From contig KZ538295.1 of assembly GCA_000934665.2 (NCBI GenBank), positions 186,001-250,000 on the forward strand: a DNA stretch of 64,000 bases. Reading direction: 5' to 3'. The notes below the pieces were generated by a model, which did not search any database, had not been told where the DNA came from, and saw only the letters and a program-made list of their open reading frames with translations. The position numbers and the translations under genes are program-made. Origin of the DNA: Catajapyx aquilonaris (lineage: Eukaryota). Positions 4,801 through 43,605 of the stretch are shown piece by piece (position 1 is the stretch's first letter; every line of letters begins with the position of its first letter).

Positions 4801-7702
4801 CCTAACTCAAGTTCCTCCCTTCTCCTTACCTTTTTATTAAATTCAATTTCATCTTTCCAATTCGAGTCGCCCCCCACCATATACCTGCAGCTTTTCTTTC
4901 CGGAGTTATTGAAACCACGCGCCTGCTGCTGCCTAAGAAAAGCAATCATGCCCCGTCTTTTGTTGGGGAGAGGCTACCCCCTCCAACTTCAATTATTTAC
5001 AGATTGTTGCTGGCCCTTCCATATTCCCTCCTTTTTCCTTCCCTTGGCTGTAGCCAAATTTAATAGTTTTTTTTTTTTAAAAAAAAGGTGTGGCATGTGA
5101 AACTTTAAAAATCTGCAGTTATTTTGCTGCCAACTTGCCTTCAACTTTTTTTTGCTTCGAATCGGCTCGTTTGAACTAAACAAACTGAAAGCATCAAAAA
5201 TTCCAGCAATTTTTGCAACACCCAGTAGGGTCAGTATAAATAATCAGCAATTTAAAATTTTGCCTCATTATGCCGGATCTAGCTGCTGGGGAGTTGAGAA
5301 TGAACCACTCGGTACATTTCCCTCTTGTAAATCATGCATGCTAATAAAACGCTCCATAACTCGTAATAGCATATTTTCCAATACCCTCCTCTAATGACGC
5401 TTACCGGTATCGTTTCCATAAATACCGTACATCTGATGGGTATATGTAGACTGATGCTTATTATTTTCTAATATTATAGTTTAGTCAATATTACGTGCTG
5501 ATGTTAGGTTTAATAGGAAGTGGGCATTACAATTAATTTTCTAGCTCATATTAAGGTGAAATGTACGATTGTTTGCTTCAACTATTGAGCTTGGGCAGTG
5601 CATATATTGTAATAGGCCGTGACTGTTGGAGCCAGGTGTGTCAGCAGCCGTCGGTCCCTATGGATCACATGAATGAGACACACACACATACACTCACTCA
5701 GAGAGAGACAGAGTGAGAGAGGCCTATGCAGCAGCAGCAGCAGCCTCCAGTCCATTCGGAATCCATTCCCTATTCATTTCATTTGGACTGTCGTCCAACT
5801 AACTGCTAGTCTCCTGTCAGGCCCTTTCATCCTTGCCTCCCATTATCCGAAGCCGAGCAGGGGAGTCGGCAACAGTTTTATTACAATAATTGGACCTTAT
5901 TGCTTATTCTTGTTCACATAGGTGATGTCTAAAAGCAAAACCTCGTCACTTAACTTGGAATGTGATAGAGTTATTAATATCATTTGTTTTGAACCGCTGG
6001 AGTGAACAAAAGCATTTTCCTCTCTCCTATATAGAGCCCTAGCTGGGGCTGGCTGCTGCTCCAAATGAAGTTGGCCAAGACTGAGTGAGTAATGGAGGGA
6101 ATGCTCCGGTTGAAATGCAATTAGTTCGACTCCCAAGTTTGCTCGGTGGCGCAAAGTTAAACAACATGAAACAGTACTTAAAGCGTCAATGTAAAGTGGC
6201 AGTGGGGCTTTTCACTCCGGGGCGAGGGATGGAGGCGAGAGAGATGGCTGCGATTTCCACTTGGCTCTACCACCTGCTTCCCCCCCCCCCCCCCCCCCNN
6301 NNNNNNCCCCCCCACCCTTCTATTCCCTCTTCACCCACCCCCCTTTCCATCATCTCCTGGTACCCAGATTAACACCACTTCCCCAGCGAAACACGATCTC
6401 ACATTTCTAGATTATGCTCAAAAAGCATACAAAAGAAGTATAGCGCGCGGTTGGAGGCAAACGGCCGCGAGATTGTCCAATAAGGATGACTTTAGCTAAG
6501 AAAATATTAGTTAAAATTTTGCTATGCGCTGAACAAATTCCCACCTGGCATCCTGCACATTTTCACCCCTCCACCCTTTTTCTCTTCCGAGTCAAAGCCC
6601 GATTCCCCACACTGGTCCCACTTCGGTTTTGCCTAATTCGGGCGCAAGTGCATGTACCAAACTTTGGCCCAGCCCAGCAGAGTAAGGGGTGGTAGGAAGG
6701 GTGGGGGGGATCAGAACAGCCCGAGTTAGTTGGAGAGTTAGAGAGAGGCGTGATATTTCTCAGAGTCCCTCTCTCCCAGGCCAGCCCCAGCCCTTTCCCC
6801 CTAATTAGGCGCATTCTGTAATCCTGCCGAGCAGTCCGCTTTCGTATCGTTTAATCAAAGGAACGCCGAGTTGGTAAGCCTCCAATAATAACGGAGCCCG
6901 ACCAGCTGTTACCGAATCTGACAATTAAACACGGGGACACCGTATGCGCAATTAATGAAAGGAAACTTGCACCGAATCTCCCCCTACCCTCTACCACCAC
7001 CAGTTTTGCTGGAAGCAGCTTGTTGGCACCATGGGGAAGGGAAATTTCAGAGAGAGAGAGAGAGACCTTCTGCCGAACAGAATAACATTACCACACTTTT
7101 GGGCCAGAGCTTTAAAAAAAAAATCCGGTTTTAGAGAGAGGGAGGGTTGGGCCTAACTTTTTGGAAGGCTTGACCCGTTGTAAATGAGCCTGGGTCTCGA
7201 TATTATGGTCCTCCCTGCATTAATAGCGCTTTTTGCCATTCCCCGAATGATTATAATGCGTTCTGACTCAAAAGTGGGACCGGGAGCTGTGTGGGTTTTA
7301 TTTTCTCGCGCTTTGCCGCAGTGCTAATGAGAGAGGGACTGAGAGATGGTGTAGGGAGGGACGTATAATAAGTGCTGCCCATTCACGCTCTATCCTGGTT
7401 AAAGCTAGTTCGGTCTGAATAATATTAGGTTCATCCAAATGTGTCTGCTATACCTTATCCTTCGTCTAATTCGCTTATTCTCTCCGTCGGATGTTTGTTC
7501 GACCTGATAGTACCACTATCATCCGCACGACTTGAGTGGCAGGAGTGTGCAGGGGAAGGGTGCTCCATCTATGGGTGAAGAATAGAACTATGTGGTAAAT
7601 CGACCTCCAGCGCGGTACTATCAGGTAGGACAAATATCCGATAGAGAAATAGTATTTTAAAAGAAAGATCAGTGTTGCCTTGGAAACGGGTTCACTGTAG
7701 AT

Positions 7703-10812: not shown

Positions 10813-12453
10813 ATGAGCTCGGTGGAGGAGGAGGAAGAGGACGACACCCACACCCTTCTGGTCCACTCCCTGCCAGGCGGCGACATCGTGCACTTTGACA
10901 GTGAGTGTCGAGTACTATTAACCCCATAAGCAATGTACAAACACACTGCGGTACCCTTGGTACTGATAGAGAGGTTTTCAGCTGACCATCTGCTGGTGTC
11001 GACGGATGATGTCGGGAGCGACCTGGTTATTGGAGGAAGAGTTGCGGTGACTCTGGAGGATGGGACGCAGGCTTTCATCACCGGAGACATTGAAGACGGG
11101 ACTGTGCAGTTGGACGATGGGAGCGTGGAGGTGGAGAAAGAGACGGTGCAGCTTGAAGATGGGTCGTCCTTTTTGAGTCAGGATGTGAAAGGTTTGTTCG
11201 TTTTGCATGTTGTATGAGCCCACACTAATATCCGGACTCTTCAGCCTTTCGCCATGTCCAGCTTGACGATGGCACAACAGTTGCGGTTCCCGACCCTCTG
11301 CTTAACATCACATTTGAGCCGCTTGTGGTGTCAGAGTCGGGTCATGAGCCACTAGAGGATGAGAGCGAGGAAGAAGAGGATGTGGATGAGCCGCCACCCA
11401 TATTTTTACCCAAGAAGCGTAACCAAAAGGCTAATACAAATGAGAAGTCCTTTCAGTGCAAGCATGAGAATTGCGGAAAGCAGTACACCACTCTCAACCA
11501 TCTGAAGGTAAGGCCTGTTCATGAAGTGTTAAGTCTTGTCAACACATTTATGAGTTGCATACAAGTATAATCAGGTGCGGTATTATGTGTTGTCATATTA
11601 ATTAAGTGGACTTGTATTGCAGGTACATGAGCGATTCCATACTGGGGACCGTCCATTCAAGTGTGATGATTGCCATAAGGCGTTCTCCACTGGTTACAGT
11701 CTGAAGGCACATACGCGGACACATACGGGGGAGAAACCGTACAAGTGTCAGGATAATCTCTGTGGGAAGTCCTTCAAGACATCGGGGGACCTGCAGAAAC
11801 ATGTACGCACCCACACAGGAGAAAGGCCGTTTCTTTGCGAAGTTGAAGGGTGCGGACGATCATTCACGACTTCTAACATACGCAAGGTGAAAACGCTGTA
11901 TGCGATCTGACGTTGTGCACTATGTTAGGTGAAATAACGTAGGGACGGATAATTAATAATTTTTCTCTCGCAGGTTCACATGCGTACTCACACTGGTGAG
12001 CGTCCGTACACATGCCCAGAGCCAGGTTGTCGCCGTGCTTTTGCTTCCGCTACCAACTTTAAGAACCACGTTCGCATCCACACTGGAGAGAAACCGTACG
12101 TGTGTACATACAACGGATGTGGGAAGCGGTTCACAGAGTACTCGTCTCTGTACAAACATCACGTGGTGCACACCCAGAACAAGCCGTATGTGTGTGGTTT
12201 ATGTGGACGGTCATATCGGCAGCCGTCAACCCTAAGTGTCCATCTGCGTTGCACCCACGGAGATGAGAGTTTCATGGTGGAGGAAGGGGAAGGAAGTGAG
12301 CCCAGCCTGCAACTGGTCAGCGTCGTTGCAGATCAGGACGTGCTAGCAGCACTGGAGGGAAGGACAGTAGAGGGCGGAGAGACCTCGCAGATTTACATCA
12401 TGACCGATCCGACTCAATTGGTAGAACTGGACATGGGGAGGGACACGCCATGA
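10813..12453 (+). CDS. ZNF143: Zinc finger protein 143/76 (Staf)-like transcription factor, ~434 aa, seven C2H2 fingers
   Basis: Exons 10813-10900, 10982-11191, 11245-11507, 11623-11886, 11974-12453 (GT-AG, phases consistent). N-terminal V(T/Q)LEDG(T/S) repeats typical of ZNF143/76. Fingers include [69 protein letters not shown] and [16 protein letters not shown]. Confidence 0.92.
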
Positions 12454-13773: not shown

Positions 13774-15224
13774 TCAATCCAGCCACTCGTTCATGTATTG
13801 GCACTTGTAGGGTGTGACAAGCCCACTCTGACAGCAGTCTTTGATAATGGGGCACATACCGCACGGAAAATACATGAGGCCAGGAGGGGGAAGAAGGCTC
13901 TCAACGGCTCTGTACAGCTTCTGTGTCTTGTCACCACTACCGGTCATAGTCTTCTCCACTTTTCCGTCATACACCAAAGTGTCCAGTATGACCTCAATGT
14001 TATCAAGCGTGAGCTTGATAGTGAACAGCCCCGAGGTGGAGATCCTCTTCCAGATATCCTCCGATGCCATGAAACTCTGCTTCTTCCGCGCAATTGGCCC
14101 AGACTTGGCCCCCGTCGTCTCCCCGCTCGTGGCCTTCTCCAGCTCATCTTGCAAGTACCGGTAACACTGCTGGTTCAGCACATCCACAAACTCAGAGTCA
14201 AACTCCTGGTCCGAATACCACGATCCCCCAGTAATCGACTGATCCGGCTCCAGATCATACAGCATATACACCTTCTGCTTCGGAGCCACAACTGACTTAA
14301 CCGCCTTGATCATATGCTTACCCTCCAGGCTCTTTAACACCTGCAAAAATATAATTAGGTCGCATTAATTAAACACCCGAGACAGATGGGAAAAATCCGC
14401 AAAAAGTGGGTGAAACATTCAGGGACAGTGGGCGGAGCTTAGACTGACAGTGGGTGGATCATCAGTTGGTGTGGGAGGGGCTTCTCCATATGAAACATTT
14501 TATCCAAGTAAACGTTAGTTGTGCCAACAATATATATTAGTTATGTATTTATTAGTTACACTAAATGTAAGGTTAAATATAATATAATTAATAGCCTATA
14601 CCATAGTTATTAGGTTAAATATTAGTTATACCAACAATATATATTAGTTATGTATTTATTAGTTATACTAAATATAAGGTTAAATATAATATAATTAATA
14701 GCCTGTAATATAGTTAATATTAGGTGAAATATTAGTTATACTACATATCAGTTATAGCAATCCTTTGACATTAGTTATGAAAATAATGTATAATGTTGAT
14801 TAATGCATTTGAAGAGCTTGTGAGCAACCTTTGTCAGCTGGGTTGTGACCAAGTTGGACTTGCTCCGTATGTGCCTGATCCATATCCCCTTGTTGCCAGC
14901 GCCTGTGATGATGTCGTACACCAGCTTCTCCTCGGTGTTGGCTCCCTTTATAGCCGTGGCCGCCGGACCTTTGGCTGTGCTGACGGCTCCTCCTCCAACG
15001 ACCGCCCTGGCCAGCTTGTAGAGCAGGCCGCCTCCTTGCTTGTACAGCTCCAGCTTCCCTGCGGCCAGCAGCTTGTTGACGGCAGTTGCCCTCACCGGAG
15101 CTGCCACCCCGTCCAGCTCCTTCACCAGAACCTTGTCCTGGACACCACCCGGCTGCCTCTCCAGCATGTCCAGTATCCTCTTCTCCACCTCACACGAAGA
15201 AGAAGTACTTGCCTCTGCTGCCAT
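13774..15224 (-). CDS. POLR3F: RNA polymerase III subunit RPC6 (RPC34/RPC39), ~320 aa
   Basis: Exons 15224-14829 and 14340-13774 (phase-0 intron). Motifs EEKLVYDIITGAGNKGIWIRHIR, KVYMLYDLEPDQSITGGSWYSDQEFDSEFV and the C-terminal Cys cluster PCGMCPIIKDC...PYKCQYMNEWLD (4Fe-4S motif of RPC6). Confidence 0.95.
14515..14760. repeat. AT-rich tandem duplication (~107-bp period) in the POLR3F intron
   Basis: CCAACAATATATATTAGTTATGTATTTATTAGTTA...TAAGGTTAAATATAATATAATTAATAGCC occurs at ~14524 and ~14631. Confidence 0.8.
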
Positions 15225-15391
15225 ACCCGCTGTACTGTACCAAACGATGCACACGCTGTCTTGCAGTCAACTATCGGACAACTATCGCCATCATTGTGCC
15301 GTTGTCATCATATCACGTGACTAATATGAGATGTCAATAGTAGCCAGAGCGATAGGATCACATTTGGAACGTTCTATCCACAGCTGGAGTT
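15225..15391. promoter_or_regulatory. Putative bidirectional promoter between POLR3F and the MULE/SWIM gene
   Basis: Only 167 bp between divergent ATGs (15224 and 15392); palindromic E-box TCACGTGA at 15313-15320; AGTAGCCAGA at 15339-15348. Confidence 0.65.
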
Positions 15392-18300
15392 ATGTCGGCC
15401 CCTGGTGCTGCCCCTGGGCCGCCCTTGGTGTTCCCGACCGACACCAAGTTGGTGTCGAGCCTGAAGGACGAGGTGGTGCTGAGGTTTGCTGGAAAGACTA
15501 AGGAGGACTTCCAGGTATGGATGAAGGAGTTCCAGGCGTCCAACAAGCTCACGTACAGGATCATGAGAACGCAGAGTAGGAAGAAAGTGCTGTACAAGGT
15601 GAGGAGGAGGACAGAAATTGGGGAAAATTTTGGTGCTGAATTTTGGATTTCTGTTGCAGGCGCACTACCGCTGCCACCGCAACACCTTGCCGAAGAGGCA
15701 CGGAACCGTCAAGCCTCATCCGAAGCACACCGGATGCCCAGCATTGATGCTAGTCACCATCAAAGGAATTGCAAAGAGACCCAGGTTATACCCAGGACAT
15801 TGTAATTTCATTAATATTAATTATAGTTGCATTAATATTGGTTACATTAATTATATTTCATTTAGTTGCATTAATATTGGTTATATTTATTAGGTATATT
15901 AGAGTAGACTAATTTGGGTATCGCCAGGGGAAAAAATACATAAAAGTATGAAAAAATGTCGGTATGTTTTGCAAACGGAGAAATGTACTTTTTTCCAGAA
16001 GACAAACTAAAAATTTGTGGTAAGTTTCATTATTTTGATTCAATATTGAAACTTGCAGTATGTACATTAGTTCATTTAAAACCTCTGAACAGCTCACTGT
16101 TGCGGAATCTAGAACCATGTTAGATTATCTGTGTTTTCCGATTATCTGGCCCGTATAATCGGGAGTAGGGCCTACAGTGTATTTAGTTACATTAGTTATT
16201 ATATTAATTATTAATTTCCAGTAAGCCATAACAATACGTTTAATTACAGGTCTAAAGATGAGTACCTGTTGAAGTATCCGACGAGAATCGTGCTGAAGAA
16301 TCAGCATAATCACAGCATTGATGCGATTGAGAGTGTGAAGCATCGGGATCCGAGCGAGGATGTTAGGAAGAAGTTTGTGGAGCTGTTCAAGGCTGGGTTC
16401 GGTACGACAAGGGCGTTGGAGCTGCACAGGCGGCACTTGATGGAAGAGTATGAGAATTACGCGGAGATTGCACAGGATCGGTTCTTTTGCCCGGATATGT
16501 ACTGGGTTAATCGTTTGCATGGACTGACTGCGGAGGAGTTTGGAGCGTACTCTGCGGATGAAATGATGGCGACTTTGAGGCGCAATGTCAGCGAGATGGA
16601 AGAGAAAGGGGTTCAAATTGTACTGAGAGAAGCTGGGGAGCATTTCACTATCGCTATTTGCACGCCTTTGATGCAACGTGTTCACTCCTTGCTTACTAGT
16701 GGAGAAATTGCCTTTTTGGACAGCTCAAGAACTGTGGATCCATACAACTGCCATGTATTTTTGATAATGGTTGACAGTTGTGTCGGGGGTCTTCCGGTTG
16801 GGGTGCTCATTACGAGTACTGAGGAAGAAGACATGTTGACTAATGCACTTGAAGATTACGTGTCCTTGCTTTCAGAAGAATCATTTGGTGGCCGCGGAAA
16901 AATAGGCCCTGCGGTTTTTCTAACTGATGACTGTGAAAGCGAGAGAAATGCGCTGGCACATTGTTTTCCACAGAGTAACGTCCTGCTTTGTACCTTCCAT
17001 TTTCTTCAGGAAACATGGAAGTGGCTGCGGGATGTAAGCCATGGCGTGGAACATGAATGCCACTATCTTTACTCATGTGTGTCGAGCCTTGTGCAGGCCG
17101 GAACGACGGAGGTGTTTGAAGAATTGCAAAAGGACCTTTTGTTGTTAGCTCTTGAGAAGAGTCCACCGTTTTATGCATTTTTGCTTGCGAATTTTGAGAA
17201 GGCAAATGAATGGGCGATTTGGTTCGCGCACAATGTCAGCACGAGGGGGAAACACATGAAGAGTGTTACGGAAGCCGCGATTCGTGCATTTGAGGATAAG
17301 ATTATGCTAAGGAACAAGGCGTACACTGTTCCGCAGCTGGTCTGTTTCATGGTTGGTGACGTGACGGCATACTATGAAGAGAAGCTGACTGCTGCTGGTG
17401 CCGGAAAATTACATCAGTTCCATCTCTCTCAGTACAAAAGTGAAACTCAGACTCTACAAGATTTGTTTGTTGAGAAACTATCCAACTCTTTGTTCAGTGT
17501 CACATCTGGTGACGATAAGACATGTGTAGTTAATGTGGATTTGGGAACATGCAGTTGTTGTATGGGACAAAATGGTGCGACGTGCAAGCATCAGCATGTA
17601 GTTGCAGTGATGACTTGCACTTGTAATGATAGGACTCCTCGGAGCTCCACAGCCAGAAAGGAACTCTTCTTTGTGGCTTCTGGGAAGAACGAATTACCTG
17701 ACGATTGGGTCGATTCATTACTGTGTAATGATATCTCCAGCATGCAAGCCAACAGCGGTTCAAGCGATTCACCTGATAATCCCACAGGTCAAGTGTCATG
17801 TAAACGAGAAGCTGTAAATGTATTGCAGCGAATAATGAATGATATCGCCACGCGATATGAGAAAGATCCAGTTGCCTTCAATGATGCTGTGTCCGTTTTT
17901 GCAAAAAAGTACTCCAACTTACAGAAAGACTGTGACTTACTGTTGGCCTTGCACACATTTGGAGATTCCAATGCACAGTCCAGTTCATCAGCCAGTGCAC
18001 GAAGCGATCTTCTGCAGGTTATGCCGCAAGCAAGCATCACAGAAGGCAATTCAGAAGCTATTATGATTATATCAGTACCGCAAACTACCAGCAATATGCA
18101 AGTGAATGCAGATAATTTGTCTGCAAATGGAGGGCAGACCAGTCCACAACCTGGAAAGCAGAAAGCAAGGGCTCTTCCGATTGGAAAAAACACCAGCAAA
18201 CTCAACAGTCAAAATGAGTTGGACAATGAACAAGAAGGGACCTTACATAGTACTTCCGAATTAAGTACTGAGCTGGGTAAGGAAGAGCTGATCACGCCAT

Positions 18301-18449
18301 CAAGTCATAAGCTTGGCGTGATGCCAGTGCCTCTTCCGCCTACACAACCAGCAGCTTGTGGCAGTAAGTACGTGAAAATCCTGCCGCGACCTGAAAAGCC
18401 GGTTGTGGGATACCTGATACGGAAAGTTACACTCCCACAGACAAAGTAA
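15392..18449 (+). CDS. MULE (Mutator-like) transposase-derived protein with N-terminal WRKY/GCM1-type Zn finger, DDE domain and SWIM finger, ~843 aa
   Basis: Exons 15392-15598, 15660-15784, 16250-18449 (phases 0 and 2 consistent). YRCHRN..TGCPA..HNH finger; AFLDSS (D1), FLTDD (D2), LLCTFH (CxxH), VTEAAIR (E); SWIM CSCCMGQNGATCKH; AATAAA at 18469-18474. Confidence 0.85.
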
Positions 18450-18532
18450 AATTGTGCAACGAAAGCGGAATAAACTGGGATGACCGTCTGTACCAGTAAA
18501 TGTATTTGTCCGCATTTATTGTAGCAAAAGTG

Positions 18533-20414
18533 TCAGTCCATTAGAGTTTCATAGTACAGATGCATCTGCAGGAGGAATATGGTGTCGTCCAGCTGCAGCT
18601 CAGCAGCGCTCAGTTTGGCCATCCTGGCGCTGACCTTCTCCAGGATGTTCTTCTCAGGTGGGGTTACCATCGATTCAACCTGAAATGGACAATGTGCTTG
18701 GAAAATTGCGCTGAATTAAAGCATAAAAGTACTCACCTCTTGCTGTTGCTCTTCAGTACCAGTCTGCTCCTGTAGATTCATAAGGAGTGTCTCAACCCGC
18801 TGGTTCTTCTCTATCAACCACTGGTGCTCTTGCTTCTCTCTTTCCCTCCGTAGAAGCGAATTAACCATCGCTTTGTAGCATGTTTCCTGTACCATCCGTA
18901 CCGCATCATTAAAGTCCACGTGAAACAGGTATGCCGACTTGTTCATGCCGCCTCCGATGGACTTCCGCAGCTCCTTAAGCTTCAGGAAATTCTCCTTCAG
19001 CAGCTGGTATGTATGCATCTTGGCTTCCTTGGCCGGAATCATTGCAGTTTCCTAGAGGTGACCAGAATTAGTGTTCGTTGTAACTCTGCGAAGATTTATC
19101 CTTACCTGCAGACGTTCCTGCTCTACAAACTTCTTGGCCCTGACCACCCTGAATATCCGAGCCGCCTTGGACCCCATCCGCTCCTGCACCACGCCCTCAA
19201 CTGTTGCCCACGCTAACTGTCGAAACGCAGTCTTCAGATCGACCCTGTACTGTCCACCTCCAGCATCTCCAACCCGTATTATGAAACCCGTCGTATCCTC
19301 TTCGAGAAGTCTCAGGTACTGGTCCAAATACTGGGTCAGATGTGGATATGTAGTTTCTTTTTGCATTGAACTCCGTATCTCCGAGTGCGGTATGGGATTG
19401 GATGATGCAGCCCATGCATCAGTTCGGGTGTACATAAGTCGCAGTAACACACGCATTAGATGCCCAGCGTTTGCGTCCATGCGACGTGTCACGGCCGCCA
19501 CCAGCACGTCGTCTCGAAAGTCTTGGTGGAACCGGTCGTAGTTGATGCGCCAGAATATGGTGTCCTTTGTGCCTGAAAATCCACATAATTTACACAGGAT
19601 TAATTACATAAACATGATCAATTGTATGCCATTTGAACATACTTTTATTCTACACTATTTCTTTAAAAAAAAAGCAGGAGACACTTTCTTTGTAACGGGA
19701 ATTGATAAAAGGTAGCAGTTTATAAGACATTGGTGTGCCAAGTTTCATCACTCTCATAGTAGTCCGGAAGTGGGTTACGTAACCTGGACATACAAACTTT
19801 CCGTTTTCTTTATGGAGAGATTTAATTTCAATTGCACAACTGGTCATACCTGCATTCCTTTCCTTCGCTTTGACACGCTCCTCTATTTGCTTCAAGTCAA
19901 GATCGGGAAGCGCACAATTGTCAAGTTCGGGCGGGCACTTCAGGATATACTTCTCCCGAGCCAGCATTTCAACAGTGTCTTTTAGTGCGGCAACCGGAGT
20001 TGTCTGCATGGCTTCGTTCATGCGACAGGACGCCCTGAAGATGAGCCCCGACGCCGTCTCCTGCCCTCGTCTCTGCAGCTCCTCAAGGATCACCTCCGCA
20101 CCGTCACCATGCACTCGCTTGGCTGCCACTAAGTACTTGCAGTACCGCATGAGGAGTATGGCATGTTCAGGACGGGCGCGGTACAGTTCGGGCAAAGGCT
20201 GCTCGGGCGAAGACTGCTCGTTTTTGACTATGTTATGCTGCATGAGTGTAGCTAACGCCTGCCTGGTCTTGTCCAGAGGCTGCTTCGACGTGGTGCTGAC
20301 CGAGTACACAGTCTGTGGTCCCCATTTAATCAGACACGAGGCCACAGCGGACACAATGGGTCCAAACGCCTCTCCAATCAACAACCCACACAAATCGCCA
20401 TGCAAGGTCGACAT
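18533..20414 (-). CDS. POLR3C: RNA polymerase III subunit RPC3 (RPC62/C82), ~497 aa
   Basis: Exons 20414-19850, 19572-19106, 19051-18737, 18679-18533 (phases consistent). Motifs ALATLMQHNIV, WRINYDRFHQDFRD, GDAGGGQYRV, VQERMGSKAARIFR, AMIPAKEAK and ELQLDDTIFLL; minus-strand AATAAA at 18515-18520. Confidence 0.93.
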
Positions 20415-20446
20415 CTCTCGCAGCTGACTGTAATATAGGAAAATCA

Positions 20447-21210
20447 TACTTGTAATTCAGGAATAGTCATACAAGTACTTGTAGGTAATACAGTAATGAC
20501 CATACAAGTACTTGTAAGTAATACAGGAATGATCATACAAGTACTTCTACTTACACAAGTACCTGTAAGTAATACAGGAATGATCATGCAAGTACTTACT
20601 ATAATTACACACGTACTTGTAAGTAATACCTTGGTAATACAGGAATGATCATACAAGTACTTCTACTTACACAAGTACCTGTAAGTAATACAGGAATGAT
20701 CATACAAGTACTTCTACTTACACAAGTACCTGTAAGTAATACAGGAATGATCATGCAAGTACTTACTATAATTACACACGTACTTGTACGTAATACCTTG
20801 GTAATACAGGAATGATCATACAAGTACTTCTACTTACACAAGTACCTGTAAGTAATACAGGAATGATCATACAAGTACTTCTACTCACACAAGTACCTGT
20901 AAGTAATACAGGAATGATCATGCAAGTACTTACTATAATTACACACGTACTTGTAAGTAATACCTTGGTAATACAGGAATGATCATGCAAGTACTTACTA
21001 TAATTACACAAGTACTTGTAAGTAATACAGGAATGATCATGCAAGTACTTGTAATTACAGTAAAAAATTATACAAGTACTTATAAGTACCGGTAATGCAG
21101 GAATAATACAAGACTACAAGTAGGCCTACTTGTAAGTATTACATGAATAATCATACACGTATTTGTAATGCAGGAATAGTGATACTTGTAAGTTATGCAA
21201 GAATAATCAT
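20447..21210. repeat. Higher-order tandem repeat (51- and 65-bp subunits, ~167-bp period) in the probable 5'UTR intron of POLR3C
   Basis: Core CAAGTAC(T/C)TGTAAGTAATACAGGAATGATCAT repeated; identical spurious ORFs are offset by 167 bp (20656 and 20823); edges degenerate. Confidence 0.9.
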
Positions 21211-21244
21211 ACTCTAAATACAGTGCACGGTACATGAAACGCAC

Positions 21245-21600
21245 CTAGTTTTCAGCTTAAAAAATAATGAAAATCACGTCAAAAGCTGCAAAATGGTCAA
21301 CGAAGGCTGCCATGTTGGATTAACAAGTGAGGATCGACGCAGAGTAGCCAGATGCAACTTTCGAACGCTGGGGCCCGGATTCAGCAAGTAGGCAAAGTTT
21401 GTACGAATAATTAATTTATGCAGTTAATATCAGGACTAATTAAGTGTTGGCAGGTACTTTTGATTGCAATTAGTGCGTGTGTTTTAATGGGGTAGTGTGT
21501 TGTGGATGCGGCGACCTTGTCCGAGGTCCCCGCCCCCTCCAACAGTCCAAGTGCGCACGCGCGTCGACGTATTTTGCAAATGGCGGCCTGAAAGCCGGGC
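21245..21600. promoter_or_regulatory. Putative divergent promoter region for POLR3C and the alpha-adaptin gene
   Basis: Minus-strand donor-like AG|GTGCGT near 21244; plus-strand donor-like CAG|GTACTT near 21453; YY1-like CAACATGGC (minus, ~21309-21317) and AAATGGCGGC (~21578-21587); CpG-rich. Confidence 0.4.
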
Positions 21601-24936: not shown

Positions 24937-27900
24937 ATGCCTGCCGTCAGAGGAGATGGAATGCGCGGGCTGGCCGTCTTCATATCCGACATTCGAAATT
25001 GTGAGTACCGGATGCTTAATGAACATCTGAATTATTTGTCTAACACTCGCTGTCTACCCAAAATGTAGGCAAAAGCAAAGAAGCGGAAATCAAGAGGATA
25101 AATAAAGAGCTGGCCAACATTAGAAGCAAGTTCAAAGGTGATAAAACTCTGGATGGGTACCAGAAGAAGAAGTACGTCTGCAAGCTCCTCTTCATCTTTC
25201 TGCTTGGTCACGACATTGACTTTGGTCACATGGAAGCTGTCAATCTCCTGTCTTCTAACAAGTACACCGAGAAACAAATAGTACGTGCAGAGTATTCGGG
25301 TTGACCTCGTTTTTGCCTGCCATTGCTGATCTCTTAACCTGGAATGTTCTTGTTTTAGGGCTACTTGTTCATATCTGTGCTTGTCAATACAAACAGTGAC
25401 CTTATCAAGCTTATTATCCAAAGCATCAAGAATGATCTGTCCTCTAGGTGAGGAATTTTGGGTTGATTTTTATTTTTTACGACAGATTTTCTGTGGAGGG
25501 CGATAATGAAATGTGTTGATTTCGTTGCAGGAACCCGATCCATGTGAACCTGTCCTTGCAGTGTATTGCGAATATTGGCAGCAAGGATATGGCCGAGTCG
25601 TTTGGCAATGACATTCCAAAGCTACTGGTTTCTGGGTAAGTTTCATTGCTATAGTCGAATCCAAGGTGATTGAAGAAGTCAAAAAGTTCTGTACTGAAAT
25701 AAGCTGCCATTTCATGACTCTTTTTACCAATTTTGAAGTTGTTTCCACTCGATTCAATGTGCGTCAATTTTTCAATCGTCATCTATTTTTCCATAGTGAC
25801 ACCATTGATGTTGTGAAGCAGTCGGCAGCTCTGTGCCTCCTCCGACTCTTCCGCACCCTTCCTGACATCATCCCATCTGGCGAGTGGACCTCCCGCATAA
25901 TTCACCTGCTGAATGACCAACACATGGGAGTTGTCACTGCCGCAACAAGCCTCATTGACGCCCTGGTGAAGAAAAGTCCGGAGGAGTATAAGGGCTGCGT
26001 TAGTCTAGCTGTCTCCAGACTCAGTCGAGTAAGTTGCTAATTTAGCTAGTTGTCCCATTAAACTTCATGCTGATGTATCTTGATGTGTCTAATCTTCATT
26101 TTGTTCCAGATTGTTACTGCCAGCTACACAGATTTGCAAGACTACACGTACTACTTCGTCCCTGCCCCGTGGCTGTCTGTCAAGTTGCTACGCCTTCTGC
26201 AAAACTACACCCCACCCGGTGAGTGCAAAATGATGTCATTGCCTGTAGGTTCGGTCGTCTCATTATTCCCCTGTTGGTCGCTGGGTGTAGAAGACCCGGG
26301 GGTGCGCGGACGGCTGAACGAGTGCCTGGAGACAATCCTCAATAAGGCACAGGAGCCGCCCAAGTCCAAGAAGGTGCAGCACTCCAACGCGAAGAACGCG
26401 GTGCTCTTCGAGGCCATCAGCCTCATAATCCACAACGACAGCGAACCCAACCTCCTGGTGAGAGCCTGCAACCAACTGGGCCAGTTCCTGTCGCATCGCG
26501 AGACCAATCTTAGGTACCTGGCTCTCGAGTCCATGTGTCTGCTCGCCACCTCAGAGTTCTCACACGAGGCCGTCAAGAAGCATCAGGAAACCGTCATAAA
26601 TGCCCTTAAGGTAGGATTTATTTTTAAAGCCTTGAAGCATTATTATAAGGGCAATAGGCTCAAGTTGTTAAATTGCGTCTGCTGAGAAAGTGTAATTCAG
26701 TGAGAAGCACTTGTTATTAAGCTTATTAAATAATCAGCATGTGGATACTCAATATTTACAAGTGCGGTGCACGTGTTGCGACCAAATTGTTTGAGTACCG
26801 AGTCACTTTCCTGTTCTTATCTGTTGCGATAACAAGGGAAGTGATGATTTCTGCGAACTGTTTCAGTTTCTAATAATGTTTTGCAATCTTTAACCTGACA
26901 GATAACTACATCGTCTTCCTTAACCTGTCCTGATTACAGCTGTTGAAAGGGGCTGAAATATATTGATGATGGCTGGTTGTTATTTTTCCTTCCCACATTT
27001 TTTGCTAATGACGATTAATCTTCTCCACAGACGGAGCGAGATGTGTCGGTTCGCCAACGAGCGGTGGATCTGTTGTATGCAATGTGCGACAAGACCAATG
27101 CCGAAGAGATTGTGCAGGAAATGCTTAACTATCTGGAGACTGCCGATTATTCCATCCGAGAGGAAATGGTGAGTAGTGAAGATCTCGTTTTTTTTGCCTT
27201 GACCAAGTGCATGAAGGTTAAGATAAGCGTTGTCTTAGCTTTGGGTTAGGGACATGGCCTATTATCACTTCCTGTGGTGTTGCCACATTGTGGTATATCA
27301 ACTTGAGTAATGTCTTTTTCTTGCTATGGTGTAAGATTATTTTTTTCTATGCTTTGATTAAAAGTAATCTTAAGCTGAGGAAAATTCCTTCATTTATTTG
27401 GAAGTCATGGTAGACATTCGTATATCATTCGTTAATTATGCAGATAAATGTTTTTGTGGTCTGCTGCTTGTCATATTGCTTAAAACGTTAGTTCGTGGTA
27501 TTTACTTGACTGTGTATCACTTGACAGGTGCTGAAGGTGGCCATTCTGGCGGAGAAGTATGCAACGGACTACACGTGGTATGTGGATGTGATCCTGAACC
27601 TGATCCGCATAGCTGGTGATTACGTGTCGGAAGAAGTGTGGTACAGAGTCATCCAGATTGTGATCAACCGGGAGGAAGTGCAGGGCTATGCGGCCAAGAC
27701 TGTGTTTGAGGCTCTGCAGGCGCCCGCTTGCCACGAAAACATGGTCAAAGTCGGCGGGTATATCCTAGGGGAGTTTGGGAATCTCATTGCCGGGGATCAG
27801 AGGTCATCTCCATCTGTGCAGTTCCAGCTGCTGCATTCCAAGGTAAAGCTGCTGTAAGATTTAAACGTGCACAGAATGAGTACTAATCGCATCTCCTATT

Positions 27901-30900
27901 CCAGTATCACCTGTGCTCTCCGATGACACGGGCTCTCCTGCTCTCTACGTACATTAAGTTTGTGAACCTGTTCCCCGAAATAAAGGGGCAGGTACAGGAC
28001 ATTTTCAAGCAGGACAACAACCTCCGAAGTGCTGACGCAGAACTGCAGCAGAGAGCCTCGGAGTACCTCCAGCTATCTATCGTCACCTCGACGGACGTGC
28101 TTGCAACCGTGCTCGAGGAGATGCCACCCTTCCCGGAGAGAGAGAGCTCCATCCTGGCCATACTCAAGAAGAAGAAACCTGGGAGGCTGCCCGAAGCTGC
28201 AGAGCCTAAGGAGAGGAAGAGTCCGGCCGCTGTAAGTACTTATGTTTACAAAAGACATGTGCTGAAACTATTCATAGTTTTTACCAGTTTATCATGGGAG
28301 TGTTGGCTGCCATTGACAGAAAATGTGTTTTAGAAGGTCGCAGAGATAACAATTTTTACAGCTTAAACGTTATTATGTTTCGCAACTGTTATGTTAATCA
28401 CCTGGACAGCATTTAATCCAGTTTTCAGGGTATGCTTTACTAAAGGTGGTCGCCACGACTGGTATCTTTATGAGGCACTTGGCAAGCCCATTAAATGCTT
28501 TCAAGTGCTCCTTACTTGGTTTCTCAATAATAAAAAATTTGATGTGCTACTAATAATGATTGCATTAGGCTACAAAATATCTGCCCCGTCTTCGCCCTCC
28601 CCAACACTTTATTTTCTTTGCTTAAGGGCCCTCTCATACTGAAGCGGCGCGGAGCCGTTCGGCGCCGCCCCAATCGGCGTGGTAAGGTAGTTATCTGTTC
28701 ATGGCACTTGCTAAATTTTGGACGTTGTTAGCACCAGGCAGAGCAGTGGAGAGGTGGAGGAGCTTTGTTGCTATTGCTGCTTCTGCGTGACCATGGGTGA
28801 AGTGATTACTTTGGGTGCATGCCCTCTGACTATGCCAATTTGCAGTTGGGGCAGTTTGATGCAGCCTAACAATGACTTGTTGCTGATTGTTACCGGACCA
28901 TTTGCTTGTGCATGTCAAGTGAGTTCATTTGATGACCTAACACATCGTTGACTAATGACTCTTGTCGGACTTGACGTGACGTGACATTCGTCTCATGTCC
29001 ATTGTCCGTTTTGGCTTTTGCCATGTGAAAGGGGATGCCAAAAAAGCTTTTTTTTATTTTTTATTTTTCTGAATGTGCAGTTGGAACTAAAATGATTCTG
29101 TGGCATCAGCCGCACCACTTCAGTGTGATTGGGCTCTAACAAGGCACTTCCCTTGCTCGTCAGAAACCATTGGGATTTGATGAACTCTGTGCCTTAAAAA
29201 ATAATGTCTTTCTTTGTTATCAATGAAAACGGGGATTTGTTGGGGACTCGTAATTATTGTTAACAATTAAGCCTGTTTTGTATTTCAGACTTTTCAAAGT
29301 TTAGCATGCGGATGTAATTCTTACGAGGATTCAGTTGCAAGCCTGTTACGATAAGCCTTCGACCAGGTATTTGACATCACTAGTAAGGGCAGACTGCAGG
29401 ATGTTAGAACTGCTTTGTTTTCCTTAGGGCTAAATTAGTTATTACACAACTGTCTTGAACTAACATTTCTTCTTGTGACATCAACATATTGTGGCGTTAG
29501 TGACTTTTGGACAATTTCGAGTGCTGCTGTTTTGAGTGCACTTACGTGGATGAAAATGTGACACTTGCCTCCAGGTGATGAACCACAATGCGGAGCACAA
29601 TGCGGCACCAAAACCAACGGCCAACAGTGTGTCGGCGGACCTTCTCGGTCTCTCCACACCGCCTGCCTCCCAGCCCAACGCGGCGTCCAACACAGGGGTG
29701 CTTGTGGACGTCCTCGGAGATCTGTACAACTCAACCCCTCACACAAACAACATCCAGCAGCAGGTCAACAACAACATGTCCGGATCCATGGAGCCAACTG
29801 ATAATGTCAAGAAGTCAGTATTTTAAAAGAAATGTTTTGGTACCATGTTTGAGTGTGAATGGTTTTGCCCTTGTCCTTAAATTGCGGATGTATGATGCAT
29901 TTGTCCGCCAATAGTGTTGATACGGCTTCTGTTTATGCCCTAGTGGTACTTGAGTGAAGCTATTCAAAGCCCATTTCCCACTTACACGATAACATTATGG
30001 TCAATTGAGAAGTGATCACTGGTCGAGCTCATAAAATATTGTGGCCATGATAAAATTTATACATTGTAATTATTTCGCTTTACATTTGCAGATTTGTGTG
30101 TAAGAACAATGGCGTCTTGTTTGAGAATGACCTCATCCAGATCGGAGTGAAATCTGAGTTCCGCCAGAACTTGGGAAGAGTAGGGCTGTTTTACGGGAAC
30201 AAGACGTCATTTCCTCTTCAGGTATGGGACTTTGTGAACTAGTTTAACTTGTTAGAATGGCCGTTTCTAATACCACCAATTTATTTTTTTTGACCACATC
30301 ATGTAGAATTTCAATCCTACAATAAGCTGTCCTGGCGAATTGGCATCGAAGGTTAATGTTCAAGTGAAGCCAGTGGAGCCTGTGATAGAAGCTGGAGCTC
30401 AGGTGCAGCAGATGGTCAATGCAGAGTGTGTTGAAGACTTCCTGGGTAAGCTAGAAGAAATCCATATACAATAATTGCAAAATTGAGAATAAAAATGCTC
30501 TTACATCTTTCAACTGATCTGCAATTCCCCTCTCTGTTATTCTAGAGATGCCAAGCCTGACTGTCACATTCCTGTACAACAATGTGCAGCAGAGACTGAA
30601 CCTCAAGCTCCCCTTAACGGTGAACAAGTTCATCGAGCCGACAGAGATGAACTCTGAGGCATTCTTTGCCAGGTGGAAGAACCTCAGCGGGTACGTCACA
30701 TGTCCGGATGCTTCCCAGGCGAGGTGCTTACGGTCTGAGAATTCCTGTTTCAGGCCTCAGCAGGAAGCCCAGAAGATATTCCGGTGCACCCACGCGATGG
30801 ACATGACTGCGACCAAGACCAAGTTGCTAGGTTTCGGGATGCAACTGATGGAAAACATCGATCCCAACCCAGAGAACTTCGTTTCTGCAGGCATAGTGCA

Positions 30901-31170
30901 CACGAGGCTGCATCAAGTTGGGTGTCTATTAAGGCTTGAACCCAACAGACAAGCACAGGTCAGTTGGAAAAACAAATTAACGCTATGTCCATGAGAAAAA
31001 ATGGTCGATCAAATTCAGACTGTCAAGGGTATGATTTTAGAACCTTACAAATTATTGTGGCAGGGAAACAATACAAGTTGTCTCTTTTCCAGATGTATCG
31101 CCTGACTATAAGAGCCAGCAAGGACTCTGTTTCAAAGCAACTCTGTGACCTCCTCTGCGAGCAGATGTAG
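24937..31170 (+). CDS. AP2A: AP-2 adaptor complex subunit alpha (alpha-adaptin), ~948 aa
   Basis: 16 exons: 24937-25000, 25069-25280, 25359-25447, 25531-25635, 25797-26028, 26110-26218, 26291-26610, 27031-27168, 27528-27842, 27905-28231, 29575-29813, 30092-30221, 30307-30445, 30546-30690, 30754-30958, 31093-31170 (phases consistent). Starts [22 protein letters not shown]; appendage [24 protein letters not shown]; ends [20 protein letters not shown]. Confidence 0.97.
28627..28686 (+). CDS. Candidate 60-nt in-frame cassette exon in the alpha-adaptin hinge ([20 protein letters not shown])
   Basis: Polypyrimidine tract plus TAAG acceptor, AAG|GTAGTT donor, phase 0-0 matching the flanking exons, no stop codon, GC-rich island in an AT-rich intron. 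Confidence 0.45.

Positions 31171-43057: not shown

Positions 43058-43605
<548 letters not shown>

Follow-up and report, generated by a model that had tools for sequence, protein, structure and literature searches.

In plants, the transposases of Mutator-like elements (MULEs) have been domesticated as transcription factors, as in FHY3/FAR1/FRS and MUSTANG. The plant genes of this sort have been studied in depth, whereas domesticated Mutator transposases of animals are known mostly as gene models that have yet to be explored. One such gene model from Catajapyx aquilonaris is considered here. It lies in a window of 64,000 nucleotides (assembly GCA_000934665.2, contig KZ538295.1, positions 186,001 to 250,000 of the forward strand), to which all positions below refer unless another contig is named. 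In this window, a gene of 843 codons with a MULE transposase core and a SWIM zinc finger stands between POLR3F and POLR3C, two subunit genes of RNA polymerase III (Pol III). The reading towards which we lean is that of a stationary, single-copy MULE-derived gene that has lost its mobility and that the host maintains for its ability to bind DNA. The gene is immobile, single-copy (at 90% identity or more) and expressed, and these are among the properties by which a domesticated transposase gene is recognized. Four marks of a mobile MULE were looked at, and three of them are absent, namely terminal inverted repeats (TIRs), further copies at 90% identity or more, and the T-N-N motif with a Lys seven residues after the catalytic Glu (E+7).

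Host adoption of Mutator-type transposases is already known, and the present gene would be a further MULE-derived gene of that sort. ‘FHY3-like’ MULE-derived genes are reported in PMC10027918 to be spread patchily across animals. The locus offers a clean animal candidate: single copy, expressed, with the catalytic triad kept in altered surroundings and with a new tail. A search of the literature, not aimed at Pol III, found no report of a MULE gene between Pol III subunit genes.

Mobility aside, all tests place this gene in the family of the SWIM-bearing MULEs of animals and fungi. These elements (sea-urchin LOC763787-type and Rhizophagus) have the same three-part architecture, are colinear with it from residues ~14 to ~682 at 29-39% identity, and share with it the two intron positions and the DDE (Asp-Asp-Glu), CxxH and SWIM residues. 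The gene differs from them in having no second copy at 90% or more and in being packed between two host genes. Further, its T-N-N and E+7 Lys are replaced, and the module IGVQPTA...APHSL...LGK is missing.

The plant proteins FHY3/FAR1/FRS and MUSTANG also resemble it. They combine an N-terminal zinc finger of the WRKY-GCM1 class with a MULE core and a SWIM finger, and they are immobile, expressed and without TIRs. The working model proposed below is borrowed from FHY3/FAR1 and MUSTANG by analogy. Nevertheless, the gene is distant from FHY3/FAR1. Its feature score for a FAR1-RELATED cluster is 0.88, which is under the Atlas line of 0.9 and serves as a lead only, and the Pfam FAR1 DNA-binding domain is absent from its three exon peptides and from 14 relatives. 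The plant proteins also have orthologues and genetics, and the present gene has neither.

In vertebrates, ZSWIM1 and ZSWIM3 are likewise host genes in which a MULE-type RNase H-like core is followed by a SWIM finger. This likeness is by Pfam model only, and the ZSWIM1/3 model, PF21056, is not reached by the gene (21.3 bits over the stretch of the MULE match, under the cut-off of 27.2); among the 14 relatives, it is passed by P0002 (34.3 bits) and P0025 (29.3 bits) only. The best structural match of the core is ISCth4 (PDB 6xgx, 6xg8, 6xgw), from the bacterial branch of the Mutator superfamily, at 11-13% identity and a template-modelling score (TM-score) of 0.34-0.44 on the target. ISCth4 is a bacterial insertion sequence that has ends and carries neither a WRKY-like nor a SWIM finger.

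Copy number, transcription and transposon ends

Copy number was assessed in two whole-genome DNA runs, X1 and X2, at a threshold of at least 90% nucleotide identity. In both runs, one unbranched contig spans 16069-20533, that is, all of exon 3 together with POLR3C, and agrees with the window letter for letter. It has a depth of 31.5 (X1) and 22.3 (X2), similar to that of the contigs on either side (35.3 and 42.2 in X1). As this single contig accounts for the whole summed depth over exon 3, no other contig matches exon 3 at 90% or more. Within the window, no second copy of the gene was found by tblastn. Thus, the count of genomic copies for which the original prediction had asked returned one copy at this identity.

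The locus is present in five sequencing runs, none of which is recorded as RNA. One of them, X5, comes from a study other than that of the four DNA runs, and from its splice joints we infer that it is RNA. All six joints seen in it remove GT..AG introns in the sense of the gene concerned (one in POLR3F, one in the MULE gene and four in POLR3C), and these joints are absent from both X1 and X2. In the MULE gene, intron 1 is spliced out in a contig of depth 5.3, with the joint 15596->15658 and the cut at +2 (= 15598/15660); the joint in POLR3F is 14338->14827. Exon 3 is covered by X5 contigs at 16869-17297, 17511-17750 and 17782-18677. The last of these, contig 21, is unbroken from 17782 to 18677 and is then spliced as POLR3C. 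As it runs spliced into POLR3C, two convergent 3' ends are merged in it, and the transcribed strand is not revealed. For intron 2, the support comes from gap-free colinearity with the nearest relative, P0010, over the junction, and from the same position and phase in relatives. Hence, the RNA check that had been proposed shows a gene that is transcribed and spliced, with contigs on exon 3 and intron 1 removed, the coverage being partial and unstranded.

The original prediction had also stated that no TIRs are visible, and this was borne out. When the left flank was aligned with the reverse complement of the right flank in three nested tests, the best local scores were 15, 16 and 25, and these were reached by 159/300, 287/300 and 53/300 shuffles, respectively. 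A repeat scan of the window gave no inverted pair flanking the gene. No direct repeat brackets it among the 20 families listed of 24, and, its ends being undefined, a target-site duplication of 8-11 bp has no fixed place. The room for ends is in any case small. The X5 contig of POLR3F exon 1 extends to 15283, so that at most ~108 bp lie between POLR3F RNA and the ATG of the MULE gene at 15392. The stretch free of the neighbours measures at most ~108 bp on the POLR3F side and 83 bp on the POLR3C side, which leaves little room for transposon ends, a promoter of its own or untranslated regions (UTRs).

The absence of TIRs must be read together with what is seen in the family. Across the gene in the contigs of three relatives (L001-L003, 7-8 kb each), no TIRs were found either. 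MULE clades without TIRs, such as Ghost and Curupira, are described in PMC6446971. The missing TIRs are, therefore, weak evidence for host adoption.

Transposase core and SWIM finger

The MULE domain PF10551 is matched above its cut-off, and the structural matches are to ISCth4; the gene is indeed derived from a MULE/SWIM transposase, as had been proposed. The Pfam SWIM model reaches 11.4 bits, under the cut-off of 19.6. Residues were counted in an alignment of 114 rows. It comprises the gene and those 113 of its 158 stored relatives that reach 540 aa; the other 45 are shorter and were dropped. In this alignment, D268, D337 and E452 fall on the consensus, which agrees with the earlier claim that the D, D and E positions are kept. 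The CxxH motif after the second Asp is also kept (C358 in 98/114 rows, H361 in 102/114).

Around the catalytic Glu, the gene departs from its family. The family motif T-N-N-x-x-E reads M-K-S-V-T-E, as had been noted before and is now evident both in the sequence itself and in the 114-row alignment. The consensus residues T447 (90/114), N448 (78/114) and N449 (86/114) are replaced by M, K and S. DDE transposases and integrases classically carry a Lys or Arg at seven residues past the Glu, and at this position the gene has a Glu. Judging by their conservation and by what is generally known of DDE enzymes, T-N-N and the E+7 Lys would be needed for activity. As both are replaced, the chemistry of the core is probably impaired.

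Over all columns that are at least 75% conserved, the gene keeps 59 of 67 (0.88, with a family median of 0.89; rank 51/113 from the bottom). Four of its eight losses cluster at 437-459, namely R437A, T447M, N449S and K459E, with N448K alongside. Average conservation with clustered losses implies that the residues defining the fold have been kept and that the surroundings of the catalytic Glu have changed.

An AlphaFold model of the exon-3 peptide was built with an alignment of 10 rows. The predicted local distance difference test score (pLDDT) is 80-94 over exon-3 peptide residues 30-330, with a mean of 63; the model is poor just before the Glu helix, where residues 326-335 of the peptide fall below 50. 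The top five Foldseek matches are chains of ISCth4, of the IS256 family, with E values from 3.8e-06 (6xgx_B, probability 1.00) to 4.3e-05, followed by Hermes. Thus, the structure check on the DDE core gave a confident fold with ISCth4 as the best match, and the core is predicted to be an RNase H-like DDE fold of the expected IS256/Mutator type. By sequence, no match in the PDB was better than E 0.74.

N-terminal zinc-finger domain and C-terminal tail

At the N-terminus, the zinc-ligand pattern is kept, with C74 in 63/64 filled rows, C95 in 64/65, H130 in 88/88 and H132 in 87/88. Pfam gave no domain here, either in the three exon peptides of the gene or in 14 relatives searched at E up to 10. 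The fold was modelled on P0010, which is collinear over the first 149 residues, with 35 relatives, and not on the gene itself; the model has a pLDDT of 87 and a predicted template-modelling score (pTM) of 0.81. With this model, Foldseek gives WRKY domains the first three places (2ayd leading, E 0.013, probability 0.99) and DNA-bound AFT2 the fifth. None of the matches reaches E <= 0.001, the WRKY and AFT2 leads lying at E 0.013-0.07. VIA-align, which is independent of Foldseek, places AFT2 (4lmg_A) first, with Z 6.8 and a root-mean-square deviation of 2.5 A over 77 aligned residues; WRKY33 is second (Z 5.5), a FLYWCH domain reaches Z 4.4, and unrelated chains reach Z ~5. A zinc-finger pattern of the WRKY-GCM1 type would thus be kept at the N-terminus, which fits a DNA-binding role.

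The other end of the protein is a tail that is predicted to be disordered. In 39 of the 158 stored proteins, the family has a C-terminal module (IGVQPTAIARR...GRP...HGY...APHSL..CV...SLGK). This module is undetectable in the gene: a profile of the 39 relatives' tails matches it only up to the ALHTFG helix, and the same profile still detects a degenerate copy of the module in P0010. The earlier claim of a long extra C-terminal tail stands in so far as 161 residues do follow the shared ALxTFG helix; relatives also run on for ~100 residues, and the difference lies in the missing module. The tail of 161 codons is free of stops in 1/20000 shuffles, and an open reading frame (ORF) of this length is far beyond chance. 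When it was compared with the tail of the relative P0012, only the shared helix before ALxTFG aligned (E 2e-08), and the low-complexity parts did not.

Relatives, shared introns and phylogeny

Among 1.84 billion representative proteins, 1987 relatives were found at E <= 0.001, and a stricter limit of E <= 1e-30 is passed by 280. The nearest is P0010 (744 aa), with 38% identity in the search and a best of 39% over the tree columns; the nearest relatives as a group stand at 36-39%. In another collection, the matches that carry names are sea-urchin and Rhizophagus proteins, at 29-33% identity, and a profile search of named proteins added none to them.

Metagenome contigs also hold relatives of P0001, a protein 33% identical to the one studied here, and in these the coding sequence of the N-terminal part is likewise broken up into three exons. 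In L001, L002, L003 and L016, the junctions are GT/AG, the first after ...FK|xEYRC in phase 0 and the second after ...KR|[ST/A]K in phase 2. The junctions of the Catajapyx gene, ...LYK|AHYRC and ...PR|SK, match these positions and phases. As both introns stand at the same position and phase in distant relatives, they are ancestral to the family and are no mark of a host gene. The three-exon structure, which had been counted in favour of domestication, is thus real, and it is not evidence for domestication, being common to relatives that are ~33% identical. It follows that scans for such genes need caution, as both introns and missing TIRs are inherited in this MULE family and do not mark domestication. 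At least 24 loci in the metagenome contigs are related to P0001, at 48-100% identity, and in six (L001-L006) the match covers the query entirely or almost so. They may represent a family with many copies, carried by a eukaryote present in those samples.

Two trees were computed. FastTree was run on 103 rows, 11 of the 114 having been dropped for fewer than 380 filled core columns, and IQ-TREE on 43 rows, which comprised 35 of the 36 members of the clade of the gene (P0132 left out) and 8 outgroups. In both, the gene groups with P0011, P0019, P0012 and P0014, with a FastTree support of 92 and a Shimodaira-Hasegawa-like approximate likelihood-ratio test (SH-aLRT) value of 84 in IQ-TREE. Three of these, P0012, P0014 and P0019, lack T-N-N and the second Asp and form a clade with an SH-aLRT of 98. 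P0014 carries a THAP domain, and P0012 has a low-complexity tail of 350 residues. These three proteins are themselves candidates for domesticated MULE genes. The terminal branch of the Catajapyx gene is long, 0.95 and 1.08 in the two trees compared with medians of 0.62 and 0.65. The grouping and the long branch would fit an old lineage that is no longer mobile; orthology is not established by the trees.

Host adoption and its alternatives

The domesticated MULE/SWIM gene of the original prediction is favoured by the single copy at 90% or more, the lack of TIRs, transcription and the altered surroundings of the Glu; of these, the TIR absence weighs little, and the introns proved uninformative on this question. 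A working model can be proposed for such a gene. The gene and POLR3F would be transcribed from one bidirectional promoter. DNA, or DNA and a partner protein, would be bound by the N-terminal domain together with the SWIM finger, and the core would act as a scaffold or perhaps in oligomerisation. The tail, rich in Ser, Gln and Asn, might recruit other factors, as happens in transposase-derived transcription factors. An indirect argument for selection is that the derived changes accumulated while 843 codons, two introns and 59/67 conserved positions stayed intact.

Several observations weigh against a gene kept by the host. The D-D-E triad, the CxxH motif and the SWIM residues are intact, and the loss of activity is something that we infer. 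Overall conservation is average for the family, and an active or recently active element would show the same. Both the introns and the absence of TIRs are family traits. The single-copy result covers 90% identity and above. The RNA reads cover the gene in part only and do not tell the strand; X5 has no contigs on intron 2 or on 16124-16691, and it is not recorded as RNA. The structural scores of the N-terminal domain are middling (Foldseek E > 0.001, Z < 8) and belong to a model of P0010. No orthologue was found among the 1.84 billion representatives, the best identity being 38-39%, and a search of metagenome contigs for a close relative gave 45 pattern matches, none of them confirmed. Lastly, the grouping with catalytically dead relatives is weakly supported, and the trees single out no member of the group as the sister of the gene.

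The strongest alternative is that of a selfish single-copy MULE, with non-TIR or cryptic ends, whose transposase was functional until recently or still is, and which inserted itself into the short space between POLR3C and POLR3F and is read from the neighbouring promoter. Such an element would be expected to keep the DDE triad, CxxH and SWIM residues, as this gene does, and to keep conserved columns at the level of the family median, which is the case (88%). The same two introns occur in its relatives, and three relatives' contigs lack TIRs, non-TIR MULE clades being described in PMC6446971. The family has many diverged open copies in metagenome contigs, with at least 24 loci at 48-100% identity to P0001, and vertical inheritance is shown by no orthologue. 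Against this, neither of the two whole-genome runs contains a further copy at 90% or more, and the T-N-N and E+7 Lys, present in 78-100 of the 114 rows, are replaced together with the loss of the C-terminal module. The free space on either side (at most ~108 bp and 83 bp) would hardly hold ends, promoter and UTRs, and the terminal branch, at 0.95-1.08, exceeds the median of 0.62-0.65. On these grounds, a selfish element is considered unlikely, though it is the alternative to be taken most seriously.

Less probable still is a young neutral relic. Such a copy would be immobile, would so far have escaped disabling mutations and would be transcribed only through the adjoining promoter of POLR3F. 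The lack of an orthologue, a terminal branch longer than typical and the loss of conserved residues around the active site would all agree with such a relic. It sits poorly with the open 2532-nt frame over three exons with intact splice sites, and with a tail whose freedom from stops is matched in 1/20000 shuffles. T-N-N, K459E and a module of ~70 residues have changed without a stop or a frameshift, which would be hard to fit with neutrality, and 59/67 conserved positions are kept at an identity of only 36-39% to the nearest relatives.

A further alternative, by analogy, is a domesticated nuclease or recombinase that is still catalytic, the host using the DDE centre for programmed DNA cleavage. 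RAG1, PiggyMac and Kat1 are transposases that hosts have adopted for programmed DNA cleavage. The kept D268, D337/D338, E452 and C358/H361, and a core that folds confidently as a DDE transposase, would suit such a role. T447, N448, N449 and K459, beside the catalytic Glu, are nevertheless replaced, the last with a reversal of charge. In addition, the structure model is weak directly ahead of the Glu helix, and the vicinity of the gene yielded neither target repeats nor ends. Such a catalytic role is very improbable.

The faintest chance is given to a lineage-specific, transposase-derived DNA-binding factor drawn into the Pol III system, driven by the POLR3F promoter and acting at repeats or at loci transcribed by Pol III, whether or not some DDE chemistry is left, since its link to Pol III is one of position and of a short divergent intergenic region only. 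The products of POLR3C and POLR3F, RPC3 and RPC6, are two subunits of one Pol III subcomplex. A POLR3C-POLR3F tandem with a foreign gene between its members may interest the field of Pol III subunit-gene regulation, any functional link being suggested by position only.

Gene structure and neighbouring genes

Joined, the three exons on the plus strand give a frame of 2532 nt that encodes 843 aa and a stop (Table 1). The ATG of exon 1 is the first after an in-frame stop, in an ORF that starts at 15356. By tblastn, exon 1 is 42% identical to residues 18-74 of P0010 and exon 2 is 60% identical to its residues 67-111. The predicted ORF of 843 aa with canonical introns and an AATAAA of its own was recovered in full, and the gaps to the neighbours, given as 167 bp to the ATG of POLR3F and 83 bp (18450-18532) to the stop of POLR3C, are exact; both neighbours were identified by Pfam.

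Table 1. Positions of the MULE gene, its functional sites and its neighbours in the window, with the related loci (positions on their own contigs) in the last row
Feature	Position	Strand	Remarks
POLR3F (RPC6/Rpc34), first coding exon	14827..15224	-	Head to head with the MULE gene; Pfam Rpc34 E 3.4e-17
Divergent intergenic region	15225..15391	.	167 bp, from the POLR3F ATG (15224-15222, minus) to the MULE-gene ATG
Exon 1	15392..15598	+	Residues 1-69; the N-terminal zinc-finger domain begins here
Intron 1	15599..15659	+	61 nt, GT..AG, phase 0
Exon 2	15660..15784	+	Residues 70-110 plus 2 nt; YRCHRNT...GCP; zinc ligands C74, C95
Intron 2	15785..16249	+	465 nt, GT..AG, phase 2
Exon 3	16250..18449	+	Residues 111-843 and stop
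H130, N131 of the HNH triplet	16311..16316	+	H132 codon at 16317-16319; H130 and H132 are the last two C-C-H-H ligands
D268, first catalytic Asp (FLDSS)	16719..16721	+	D in 105/114 rows
MULE domain PF10551	16764..17009	+	Exon-3 peptide residues 172-253; E 6.2e-08, 33.4 bits against a cut-off of 27.6
D337/D338, second catalytic Asp (LTDDC)	16926..16931	+	D in 96/114 and 92/114 rows
M-K-S-V-T-E (447-452), at the T-N-N-x-x-E of the family	17256..17273	+	Catalytic E452 kept; E in 96/114 rows
E459, at the family Lys of Glu+7	17292..17294	+	K in 100/114 rows; E in this gene
SWIM finger C545-x-C547-x8-C556-x-H558	17550..17591	+	Each Cys in 112/114 rows, His in 110/114
C-terminal tail	17964..18446	+	Residues 683-843, 161 residues; predicted disordered, pLDDT ~25-35
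AATAAA of the MULE gene	18469..18474	+	20 nt past the stop; read in the sequence
AATAAA of the convergent POLR3C	18515..18520	-	TTTATT on the plus strand; 13 nt past the POLR3C stop
POLR3C (RPC3/Rpc82), last coding exon	18533..18677	-	Tail to tail with the MULE gene
P0001 relatives	L001 1094-5474; L002 953-6519; L003 1432-6962; L016 349-5234		Introns of ~1.1-1.5 kb

POLR3C and POLR3F stand in tandem on the minus strand (13774-21245), and the 3.3 kb that separate them contain the MULE gene. The Pfam model Rpc34 matches POLR3F at 13774-14364 and 14775-15224 on the minus strand, and the C-terminal part of POLR3F matches human RPC6 at E 1.4e-62, compared with E 9.9e-21 for the yeast RPC6 chain. 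In POLR3C, the exons upstream of the last one match HTH_9, RPC82 and POLR3C_WHD over 18716-20456, also on the minus strand; no longer relatives turned up for its exon of 268 aa. The AATAAA signals of the MULE gene and POLR3C lie ~45 bp apart, and the 3' ends of the two genes abut or overlap. The intergenic region of 167 bp on the other side is probably a shared bidirectional promoter, and it contains a CACGTG at 15314-15319. In the whole window, this palindrome occurs 25 times, with 9.5 expected, and 0/100 shuffles reach 25. In the observed/expected ratio of CpG and in the GC content of third codon positions (GC3), the MULE gene and its neighbours have overlapping ranges, and the gene is not set apart.

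The introns of the locus carry repeats. In intron 2 of the MULE gene, ~15990-16056 is a dispersed repeat with a summed depth of 870 in X1, compared with ~32-42 around it, and with loose ends at 15990 and 16040-16056; at 16042-16124, its other genomic copies skip 78-81 bases. Another dispersed repeat, with a summed depth of 306 in X1 and many loose ends, occupies 19717-19756 in an intron of POLR3C. Both look like fragments of the type of miniature inverted-repeat transposable elements (MITEs) or short interspersed nuclear elements (SINEs). An AT-rich repeat of TTAGTTA/ATTAATA units is common to the POLR3F intron (14509-14746) and intron 2 of the MULE gene (15799-15891 and 16188-16229). It has, in part, a spacing of 15 nt, and a unit of 104 nt is duplicated at 90%.

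Elsewhere in the window, a C2H2 zinc-finger gene was found at 11953-12453 on the plus strand, and an AP-2 alpha-adaptin gene at 25612-30994, also on the plus strand, with Adaptin_N and Alpha_adaptin_C matched over five ORF pieces. Short runs of N, 12 bases in total, lie at 6299-6306, 8489, 40259, 58934 and 62952. An uninterrupted run of 540 T occupies 43063-43602, in surroundings with a GC content of 0.19 and an AT skew of -0.68; it is probably an artefact of assembly or reads, or else an extreme homopolymer.

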